Positions 6,137 to 7,578 of a stretch of 8,037 nucleotides of DNA are shown here, in pieces (position 1 is the first letter of the stretch; each line of letters starts with the position of its first letter). A program made the position numbers and the translations under genes. The stretch is from a virus (taxonomy: Duplodnaviria; Heunggongvirae; Uroviricota; Caudoviricetes): the IMG/VR virus record IMGVR_UViG_2531839237_000019. The stretch is one strand, 5' to 3'. The notes below the pieces were generated by a model. That model searched no databases. It worked only from the letters and a program-made list of their open reading frames with translations, and was not told where the DNA came from.

Positions 6137-6164
6137 ATGTTGATTACAAAAATGTAATCAACAT
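6137..6164. promoter_or_regulatory. 28-bp perfect palindrome (12-bp arms, 4-bp spacer); candidate dimeric regulator site
   Basis: ATGTTGATTACA-AAAA-TGTAATCAACAT; the arms are exact reverse complements. It lies about 27 bp upstream of a TATAAT hexamer and about 165 bp upstream of the ModA-like gene start. Confidence 0.45.
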
Positions 6165-6190
6165 GTAAGGTTTATACTCTTCAATATGCG

Positions 6191-6196
6191 TATAAT
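6191..6196 (+). promoter_or_regulatory. Candidate -10 hexamer (TATAAT) for the moron gene
   Basis: Perfect TATAAT in an AT-rich region with no convincing -35. A second candidate, TTGACT, lies at 6210-6215. Promoter assignment is unverified. Confidence 0.3.
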
Positions 6197-6328
6197 TTTC
6201 CTTATTTTGTTGACTTTAAATAACAAGCTATGCACGAGGTAAAGTCGGATAAGTTTATCTGGATGTAATATATATTATTTGTAGTGTTTATAACTTTATT
6301 TCATGATAACCAATAAAAGGAGTTTTTT

Positions 6329-7087
6329 ATGAGGAACATAATGGCAGGTTTTTTAATATTCCTGTCTTCTGCTGCTTATGCTGATATCAATCTGTATGGT
6401 CCTGGTGGCCCGCATACAGCCTTGCTTGATGCAGCCAAACTTTATGCCGAAAAAACAGGTATTATAGTGAACGTTCATTACGGCCCACAGAACAAATGGA
6501 ATGAAGATGCCAAAAAAAATGCAGATATCTTGTTTGGCGCATCAGAACAATCTGCTCTGGCTATCATTCGGGACCATAAAGACAGCTTCAGTGAAAAAGA
6601 TATTCAGCCTCTTTATCTGCGAAAAAGTATTTTACTGGTAAAGAAAGGTAATCCTAAAAATATCCGGAGTATTGACGACCTGACCAGACCTGGGATTGGC
6701 GTAATTGTTAATGATGGTGGTGGTACCAGTAATACATCAGGCACTGGCGTCTGGGAAGATATTGCCGGACGTAAAGGGAATATAGAAACTGTCGCCGCAA
6801 TCCGAAAAAATATTATTTTATATGCGCCCAATAGCGGAACTGCACGTAAGGCTCTTGAGAATCAGCCTGGAGCAGATGTCTGGATAACCTGGGCTGACTG
6901 GGCAGCCAGTAATCCAGAAATTGGTGATGTCGTGGAAATAGCGCCAGACTACGTGATATGGCGTGATATGAACATTACAGTACGTCAGGATGCAAATGAT
7001 GAAACCCGTCGATTTGCAGAATGGCTACAAACCGATGAAGCGGCGCCTGCATTCAAAAAATATGGCTGGACCAGGAAAGGCACTTGA
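6329..7087 (+). CDS. Secreted periplasmic substrate-binding protein, ModA-like (type 2 PBP fold), 252 aa
   Basis: AAGGAG SD lies 6 nt before ATG 6329, with a second in-frame ATG at 6341. The N-terminus MRNIMAGFLIFLSSAAYA-DIN looks like a signal peptide with an AYA cleavage motif. The C-terminus ...RRFAEWLQTDEAAPAFKKYGWT aligns with ModA ...KAFYDYLKGPQAAEIFKRYGFT, and the overall pattern matches molybdate/tungstate-type binding proteins. No permease or ATPase genes are adjacent. The gene is AT-rich. Confidence 0.8.
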   Translation: MRNIMAGFLIFLSSAAYADINLYGPGGPHTALLDAAKLYAEKTGIIVNVHYGPQNKWNEDAKKNADILFGASEQSALAIIRDHKDSFSEKDIQPLYLRKSILLVKKGNPKNIRSIDDLTRPGIGVIVNDGGGTSNTSGTGVWEDIAGRKGNIETVAAIRKNIILYAPNSGTARKALENQPGADVWITWADWAASNPEIGDVVEIAPDYVIWRDMNITVRQDANDETRRFAEWLQTDEAAPAFKKYGWTRKGT

Positions 7088-7090
7088 CAT

Positions 7091-7119
7091 CCTCGTCCTT
7101 CAGGACGTGGATTCTTTTT
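7091..7119 (+). terminator. Candidate intrinsic terminator after the binding-protein gene
   Basis: CCTCGTCC-ttca-GGACGTGG hairpin (one mismatch) followed by ATTCTTTTT, starting 4 nt after the stop codon. Confidence 0.4.
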
Positions 7120-7206: not shown

Positions 7207-7230
7207 CCGATATGGGAATTCCCATATCGG
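7207..7230. promoter_or_regulatory. 24-bp perfect palindrome upstream of the hok promoter region
   Basis: CCGATATGGG-AATT-CCCATATCGG, exact 10-bp arms. No T-run follows, so a protein-binding site or RNA structure is more likely than a terminator. Confidence 0.35.
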
Positions 7231-7324
7231 GCGAAAACGGTTTGCTGTAACGGCAGAGTTAAGTAGGATTGCTGCGGGTGCTTGAGGCTATCTGCCTCGG
7301 GCATGAACACCAACGGCAGATAGA

Positions 7325-7378
7325 TAAAAGCCCCACCCGACTATAAATCGAAGTGAGGCCCCTATATGCTCGTCACAT
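7325..7378 (-). ncRNA. Predicted Sok-like antisense RNA of the hok locus
   Basis: On the minus strand a TTGACC -35-like hexamer (plus 7404-7409) overlaps the hok SD, with a weak -10 about 17 nt downstream. A hairpin GCCUCAC...GUGGGGC followed by UUUU (plus 7326-7362) could act as terminator. The transcript would be complementary to the SD and ATG of the upstream in-frame leader ORF (ATG 7366). Boundaries are approximate. Confidence 0.25.
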
Positions 7379-7422
7379 ATAGATTGCCTCTTACGGACCG
7401 AAAGGTCAAGGAGAAGCAGGCT

Positions 7423-7578
7423 ATGAAGCAGCAAAAGGCGATGTTAATCGCCCTGATCGTCATCTGTTTAATCGTCATAGTGACGGCACTGGTAACGAGG
7501 AAAGACCTCTGCGAGGTACGAATCCGAACCGGCCAGACGGAGGTCGCTGTCTTCACAGCTTACGAACCTGAGGAGTAA
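7423..7578 (+). CDS. hokD: Hok-family type I toxin (HokD/RelF-like), 51 aa
   Basis: MKQQKAMLIALIVICLIVIVTALVTRKDLCEVRIRTGQTEVAVFTAYEPEE is near-identical to HokD/RelF as recalled; the paralog assignment is from memory. AAGGAG SD at 7408-7413 with a 9-nt spacer. An in-frame upstream extension from ATG 7366 (the 70-aa track ORF) may be the mok-equivalent leader ORF. Confidence 0.9.
   Translation: MKQQKAMLIALIVICLIVIVTALVTRKDLCEVRIRTGQTEVAVFTAYEPEE

Follow-up and report, generated by a model that had tools for sequence, protein, structure and literature searches.

A predicted CusR/HprR-type operator upstream of the prophage-borne adhesin gene paa/adfO

Introduction

The CusSR two-component system senses copper and silver, the HprSR system senses H2O2 and HOCl, and their response regulators, CusR and HprR, both belong to the OmpR family. 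The two regulators have a single recognition sequence in common: the published CusR and HprR box in the hprR-hiuH spacer of E. coli, within the promoter of hiuH (yedX)-msrPQ, is CATTACAAAATTGTAATG. Both hiuH and cusC are activated by HprR and by CusR. In K-12, CusR and HprR have essentially one or two targets, or two binding regions. In the K-12 sequences of the two promoters (L244, 1508-1537, and L245, 2870-2902) we also observe a third half-site, TGTCAC in cusC and TGTAAG in hiuH, located 5 bp past the published inverted repeat and followed 22 nt further on by a -10-like hexamer, an arrangement for which we found no description in the literature that we searched.

The gene paa/adfO encodes a product described as an adherence factor that contributes to attachment in porcine EPEC and in EHEC, and it is in wide use as a virulence marker. 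No regulator of paa/adfO was found in the literature searched, and a review of EHEC O-islands names none for adfO. Here we analyze a palindrome in the leader of this gene and compare it with the hiuH and cusC promoters.

Results

A lambdoid prophage carries paa/adfO as a moron

The window, by which we mean the whole stretch of 8,037 nucleotides that was analyzed, is part of a lambdoid STEC prophage. Its genes encode a CI-like repressor, Cro, a YdaT-like protein, replication protein P and a DUF1627 protein, with DicF and sok/hokD nearby. Matches to Rfam place the DicF antisense RNA at 109-158 (minus strand) and the sok antitoxin RNA at 7276-7425 (plus strand), as expected for such a prophage. 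The features on which the analysis turns are the following.

5635-6127, plus strand: pixH/papH-like fimbrial pseudogene with 86% identity to plasmid pixH; left junction, outside the predicted operator
6123-6136, plus strand: left flank (ATTCCAAACAGG...), the point in the alignment from which all paa-like modules are homologous; related to the left flank of the hiuH box
6137-6164, no strand: 28-bp perfect palindrome, read from the sequence; only the prophage lineage has the perfect 12-bp arms
6142-6159, plus strand: predicted CusR/HprR box, G-ATTACA-AAAA-TGTAAT-C, two 6-bp inverted half-sites around a 4-bp A/T spacer
6164-6172, plus strand: predicted third half-site TGTAAGGTT, a direct repeat 11 bp past the right half-site (TGTAAT-N5-TGTAAG); same 9-mer and spacing in K-12 hiuH
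6191-6196, plus strand: predicted -10 hexamer TATAAT with no recognizable -35, third longest invariant block of the leader; the start site downstream of it is putative
6317-6322, plus strand: Shine-Dalgarno sequence AAGGAG of paa; AATAAAAGGAG is kept in all lineages
6329-7087, plus strand: paa/adfO (z2053), the gene predicted to be controlled, encoding an adhesin of the AcfC family (SBP_bac_11, "binding-protein-like")
7094-7107, plus strand: terminator-like hairpin and T run after paa, from the terminator scan; the right edge shared by the modules is at about 7150

Because the gene downstream is paa/adfO, an AcfC-family adhesin gene in a lambdoid prophage, the label "moron promoter region" that the first-pass annotation had given to this leader is a fair one. 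The homology to pixH ends at about 6127, which is 38 bp short of the pixH stop codon and about 10 bp ahead of the palindrome. Since this pixH-like pseudogene is fused to the paa module, the prophage moron is a composite of two plasmid-type fragments. We rejected the idea that the module had inserted into pixH, because the 3' remainder of pixH was looked for past the paa module and is absent.

AdfO has been linked to type II secretion in EHEC. As a separate observation, the paa homologue on the Raoultella planticola chromosome (L246) adjoins remnants of type II secretion genes (PulS/OutS-like and GspL_C).

The palindrome is far from chance expectation

The perfect palindrome, ATGTTGATTACA-AAAA-TGTAATCAACAT, has exact 12-bp arms and a 4-bp spacer, as had been reported from the first reading of this DNA. 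The accompanying claim, that such a repeat is far beyond chance in a 270-bp leader, held up in simulation: only 17 of 20,000 simulated leaders of this length and of the local A+T-rich composition contained one, and when perfect inverted repeats are counted across the whole window (minimum arm 12 bp, maximum spacer 8 bp) there are two, compared to 0.005 expected per 8 kb (400 first-order Markov simulations). TATAAT was also correctly placed just downstream, as it begins 26 bp past the right arm. The second perfect palindrome of the window, CCGATATGGGAA/TTCCCATATCGG (7207-7230; 24 bp, no spacer), sits between the right edge of the paa module and sok/hokD, and its chance improbability is equal to that of the first.

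A repeat of this kind can also be read at the level of RNA, as a hairpin that would serve as a terminator, insulator or stabilizer on transcripts that read through from the early region of the prophage or from what is left of the fimbrial gene. A pseudogene and phage early genes do lie upstream of the site, and the 12-bp stem folds in its context at about -17 to -18 kcal/mol (z = -3.2 against shuffled sequences). Nevertheless, we regard this explanation as extremely unlikely. The stem has 3 G-C pairs in 12 and is followed by GTAAGGTTTATAC; it lacks the combination of a G+C-rich stem and a U tract that marks an intrinsic terminator, and the terminator scan made no call there. In other lineages the outer stem is not maintained, and only a 6-bp A/U-rich stem is kept, without covariation. 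Furthermore, the homology to hiuH and cusC described below is that of a DNA site, and the element is upstream of the conserved -10 and so outside the paa mRNA.

The conserved unit is offset from the palindrome

The leader is present in 604 of 5,426 complete E. coli genomes, at a median of 1 place per genome, and in every case paa or a paa-like gene accompanies it. In E. coli, E. albertii and Shigella, many F-type plasmids have diverged versions of the leader (69-76% identity) ahead of their paa-like genes. We aligned eight paa-like lineages from prophages and F-type plasmids to obtain a footprint of the leader, and the three longest blocks that are invariant across them are ATTACAAAAATGTAATCAA (6143-6161), GTAAGGT (6165-6171) and TATAAT (6191-6196). 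The outer 6 bp of each arm vary among the lineages with no compensating pattern: left variants include ATGTTG, CTGTTG, TTGTAC, CTGTGC, CTGGGT and GCACTC, and right variants include CAACAT, CAATAT, CAATGT and CAACGC. Therefore, the 28-bp perfection belongs to the prophage lineage only. What is conserved is not the palindrome but its inner 16-19 bp (ATTACA-AAAA-TGTAAT-CAA) together with the third half-site TGTAAGGT, whose first base doubles as the last of the right arm. The predicted functional unit stops short of the palindrome's left end and reaches past its right end, and the extra outer symmetry of the prophage lineage (12-bp arms versus 6-7-bp arms) is probably dispensable. Template switching that corrected a quasi-palindrome might be the source of this extra symmetry, which could make binding stronger or change it.

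A small open reading frame in the leader (12 codons, ATGCACGAG...TAA) was rejected as a feature because its start and stop vary across lineages. We also note that the E. albertii plasmid pEA50_1 (L008) carries the only lineage altered inside the box (ATTGCA); it has no annotated paa-like CDS and has an IS481 transposase gene (3901-4947) at the expected 3' end of paa, and this paa-like copy may be decaying.

In all lineages, homology sets in 20-35 bp left of the palindrome, with divergence upstream of about 6123, and in at least seven contexts the DNA beyond this edge differs, consisting of the pixH remnant, a Tn3 transposase fragment, IS21 or other sequences. A boundary of recombination or of a mobile element, such as a site-specific recombination site, an IS or MITE end or a rearrangement hot spot, might explain a left edge shared in this way; perfect palindromes can be fragile, and the Providencia locus has a tyrosine integrase gene whose end is about 260 bp upstream. 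We consider such a boundary very unlikely on several grounds. The left edges fall 20-35 bp away from the palindrome instead of at it, the right end of the module has no matching repeat, and the 4-bp spacer is too short for the core of a tyrosine-recombinase site. The conserved part runs rightward into the third half-site and the -10 and matches hiuH, a chromosomal promoter that is not mobile. The leader also does not behave as a repeat element, IS or MITE with many copies at unrelated sites: genomes have it about once each and never apart from paa, which disposes of the concern, raised at the outset, that the palindrome might be a fragment of a widespread repeat. Breakpoints piling up at the edge of a selected promoter explain the shared boundary. 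On the operator reading, the box would be the outermost cis element that is needed, so that rearrangements may approach it without entering it, and the loss of homology 20-35 bp to the left of the box in all lineages is what would be expected.

Outside this group, a paa homologue of Providencia alcalifaciens (67% protein identity) has a leader that is otherwise unalignable by eye but keeps TTACA-AAAA-TGTAAT-TATTC-TGTAAT followed, 22 nt on, by TATACT. The box is absent, and the upstream regions are unrelated, in the paa homologues of the E. albertii chromosome, Citrobacter, Edwardsiella, Salmonella, Raoultella, Enterobacter and Yersinia. A regular-expression scan of 52 loci of more distant AcfC-family genes from GTDB species found the box in Providencia only, with more than 40 distant taxa lacking it. 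Given that several paa homologues lack the box, control by this element would be lineage-specific. In the box-less loci of Citrobacter (L017) and Edwardsiella (L018 and L022), we observe a common block, TTTTCGTGATAAC, about 60-75 bp upstream of the paa-like start codon, which suggests that another regulator controls the gene in these genera.

The leader matches the hiuH and cusC promoters

The layouts of the two K-12 promoters and of the paa promoter in the window are as follows.

hiuH (K-12): ATTACA-AAAT-TGTAAT, N5 GCTGC, TGTAAGGTT, 22 nt, TATCCT
paa (window): ATTACA-AAAA-TGTAAT, N5 CAACA, TGTAAGGTT, 21 nt, TATAAT
cusC (K-12): ATGACA-ATTT-TGTCAT, N5 TTTTC, TGTCAC, 22 nt, TAAAGT

We took a CusR/HprR box to be an 18-bp inverted repeat like that of hiuH or that of cusC (AAAATGACAANNTTGTCATTTT), and the paa site is such a repeat. 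Relative to the hiuH box, GATTACAAAAATGTAATC in the window is identical at 15 of 18 positions and CATTACAAAAATGTAATC in the plasmid lineages at 16 of 18, with both 6-bp half-sites and the 4-bp spacing the same. The likeness extends past the box, to the identical 9-mer 5 bp on and to a -10-like hexamer 21-22 nt further: the distance from the third half-site to the -10 is 21 nt in paa and 22 nt in hiuH, cusC and Providencia. This promoter layout, with a third half-site 5 bp on, a -10 about 22 nt further and the box centered near -53, is our own, unpublished reading of the K-12 sequences with putative -10 hexamers and start sites, and the paa leader conforms to it. A search of the window for the 27-nt pattern ATTACA-N4-TGTAAT-N5-TGTAAG gives one exact occurrence (0 mismatches), whereas 0.01 occurrences would be expected even with 3 mismatches allowed. 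The left flank is related as well. A 12-mer in the left flank of hiuH, GAAACAGCCTGG, is found again in a plasmid lineage (L013: GAAACAGCCTGG), its offset from the box almost unchanged, and the window reads CAAACAGGATG. This resemblance suggests that the promoter descends from a spacer of the hprR-hiuH type.

There are also differences. Compared to hiuH, the paa site has AAAA in place of AAAT as its spacer, has G...C in place of C...G as the bases flanking the box in the prophage lineage, and is extended to a palindrome with 12-bp arms; in addition, its -10 lies 1 bp closer than those of hiuH and cusC. The hiuH site is chromosomal and precedes a repair operon with the regulator gene divergently placed, while the paa site is on a prophage or plasmid moron before an adhesin gene, without a regulator gene diverging from it. 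The CusR box in the spacer between cusC and cusR (AAAATGACAATTTTGTCATTTT) is like paa in its 6-4-6 inverted repeat, its N5, its third half-site and the matching distance to the -10, and it too forms an extended perfect palindrome (22 bp); its half-sites are TGACA/TGTCA as opposed to TTACA/TGTAA.

The match to the box, the shared layout and the retention of both in Providencia make it likely that the palindrome marks an operator for the OmpR-family regulators HprR and/or CusR, and we predict from these sequence comparisons that 6142-6159 and the third half-site at 6164-6172 form it. The first-pass annotation had proposed a site for a dimeric regulator and had left its factor unnamed. A regulator site as such is borne out by a conserved box upstream of a conserved -10 in a single-copy leader, but the geometry of a symmetric dimer is not: the hiuH/cusC-like box and layout fit an OmpR-family regulator at three half-sites in a promoter without a -35 rather than a symmetric dimer repressor. 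A candidate for the factor can now also be given, since the core is a near-perfect CusR/HprR box with the layout of the hiuH and cusC promoters.

Other regulators explain the leader less well

We compared the site by eye with the consensus sites of IHF, FNR, CRP, LexA, Fur, Zur, ModE, TyrR, EvgA, GacA/UvrY, CpxR, RstA, OmpR and KdpE. The earlier statement that the palindrome matches none of CRP, FNR, LexA, Fur or ModE was upheld, the arrangement or spacing being wrong in each case, and a published negative result for z2053 agrees with the exclusion of Fur. The arms do contain the FNR half-sites TTGAT and ATCAA (consensus TTGAT-N4-ATCAA); these are 12 bp apart, not 4, and TTGAT is not conserved in other lineages. 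Zur, TyrR, EvgA and the GacA/UvrY box likewise fail on arrangement or spacing. The IHF consensus is WATCAANNNNTTR; a partial match, AATCAACATGTAA, is present in the E. coli lineages and missing in Providencia, and IHF was rejected.

TGTAA pentamers are used by several other proteins, and the resemblance to CusR/HprR boxes could therefore be one of family only, with the site serving a different winged-helix regulator of the OmpR/ToxR type or another TGTAA-recognizing protein. Candidates would be a plasmid-borne PcoR or SilR, a ToxR/TcpP-like membrane regulator, KdpE, CpxR, RstA or OmpR. PcoR and SilR we take to be close CusR paralogues, for which the same box would be expected. CpxR (GTAAA-N5-GTAAA), RstA (TACA-N6-TACA) and OmpR have similar half-sites, with a repeat period of 10 bp versus 11 bp here. 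KdpE (TTTATA-N5-TTTACA) has the same 6-5-6 geometry, and its half-site match is weaker than that of hiuH.

BceR-like OmpR-family regulators have the consensus TNACA-N4-TGTAA with an AT-rich spacer, which TTACA-AAAA-TGTAA in the window satisfies, and TcpP of Vibrio cholerae binds in tandem at toxT, adjacent to the -35, with the site TGTAA-N6-TGTAA, to which 6153-6168 (TGTAA-TCAACA-TGTAA, next to the -35 position) is an exact match. The half-site grammar is therefore that of winged-helix OmpR-family proteins. BceR-type systems are found in Firmicutes, with another regulator subfamily and other target genes, and neither a BceRS two-component system nor a BceAB-type ABC transporter is present at the paa loci, whose hosts are Escherichia or Providencia and whose downstream gene is of the AcfC family. 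For TcpP, the paa gene is homologous to acfC, which belongs to the same ToxR/TcpP/ToxT virulence island in Vibrio. The toxT site has no upstream inverted half-site, unlike paa, and its distance to the -10, from the published coordinates, reportedly differs by about 3 bp from that in paa. To our knowledge TcpP, a membrane-bound regulator, is known only from Vibrio, and we know of no counterpart in paa hosts.

We scanned metagenome and viral contigs for TTACAAAAATGTAA-N6-TGTAA and found 175 instances, of which 44 are paa modules. The other 131 are mostly in very A+T-rich DNA and include a recognizable family upstream of BceA-like ABC-transporter ATPase genes; an ABC ATPase lies within 700 nt downstream in 33 of these 131. 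In A+T-rich gut contigs (L071-L243), sites of the form (C)TTACAAAAATGTAAG-N5-TGTAAG-nnAAATCGATGG stand 80-140 bp upstream of BceA-like ABC ATPase genes, and they resemble operators of the BceR type with a downstream tail that is conserved. The compound motif of an inverted repeat and a downstream TGTAA thus precedes BceA-like genes in metagenomes, and Fang and colleagues are said to have described in 2017 a main inverted repeat and a secondary downstream site in BceR-like operators.

Overall, we find a different TGTAA-recognizing regulator unlikely, because none of these alternatives explains an identity with hiuH that spans about 45 bp and takes in every half-site, the 9-mer TGTAAGGTT, the two spacings and the left flank. 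Nor is any regulator gene consistently linked to the module: the neighbors of the modules are AraC/GyrI-like genes, integrases, IS elements and Tn3 fragments, and no HprR/CusR-like gene adjoins paa in any enterobacterial homologue examined.

Published data bearing on CusR/HprR control

Published RNA-seq of EDL933 offers circumstantial support for control by CusR or HprR in that cusC, cusF and z2053 (acfC, i.e., paa) are all induced in rumen content; counting against it, z2053 is induced in rectum content without cusC or cusF. Circumstantial support also comes from a recent report in which HprR is required for EHEC adherence; counting against it, the defect of the hprR mutant was attributed there to ler (Virulence 2026;17:2653855). 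HprR ChIP-seq in EDL933 gave 41 peaks, and the main text makes no mention of paa/adfO (Virulence 2026;17:2653855). In the literature searched there is no report that ties Paa/AdfO to CusR or HprR.

Discussion

Based on the comparison with hiuH and cusC, we propose that the paa leader would be occupied by HprR and/or CusR in phosphorylated form, at the inverted repeat ATTACA-N4-TGTAAT and at the TGTAAG that follows it. The site would be centered about 52-53 bp upstream of the putative start and would abut the missing -35, such that the bound regulator could recruit RNA polymerase to the TATAAT promoter. Binding at paa is predicted from the sequence, and the direction of control, activation, would follow by analogy with hiuH and cusC. 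Because no regulator gene travels with the module, the regulators would come from the host chromosome and act in trans. Copper or silver would then signal through CusS, and H2O2, HOCl or chlorite through HprS, to induce the adhesin; paa/adfO is thus predicted to respond to copper and/or to reactive oxygen or chlorine species.

In a wider reading, which we hold to be as likely as not, a short promoter-operator cassette derived from a spacer of the hprR-hiuH type would move together with paa-like adhesin genes. In E. coli, E. albertii and Shigella its vehicles would be prophages and F-type plasmids, it would also occur in Providencia, and it would plug these genes into the chromosomal CusSR and HprSR systems of the host. 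The CusR/HprR box is a known type of site, and what is new is its predicted place, a horizontally transferred adhesin moron. The case illustrates how a moron may bring its own operator for a host-encoded regulator.

If the prediction is right, CusR and HprR would gain a horizontally acquired virulence target in pathogens, in keeping with recent work reporting that EHEC depends on HprR to adhere and to colonize. Adhesion would then respond to copper, for instance from copper-supplemented pig feed or in phagocytes, and to neutrophil oxidants, and adhesin expression would be tied to metal supplementation of livestock and to gut inflammation.
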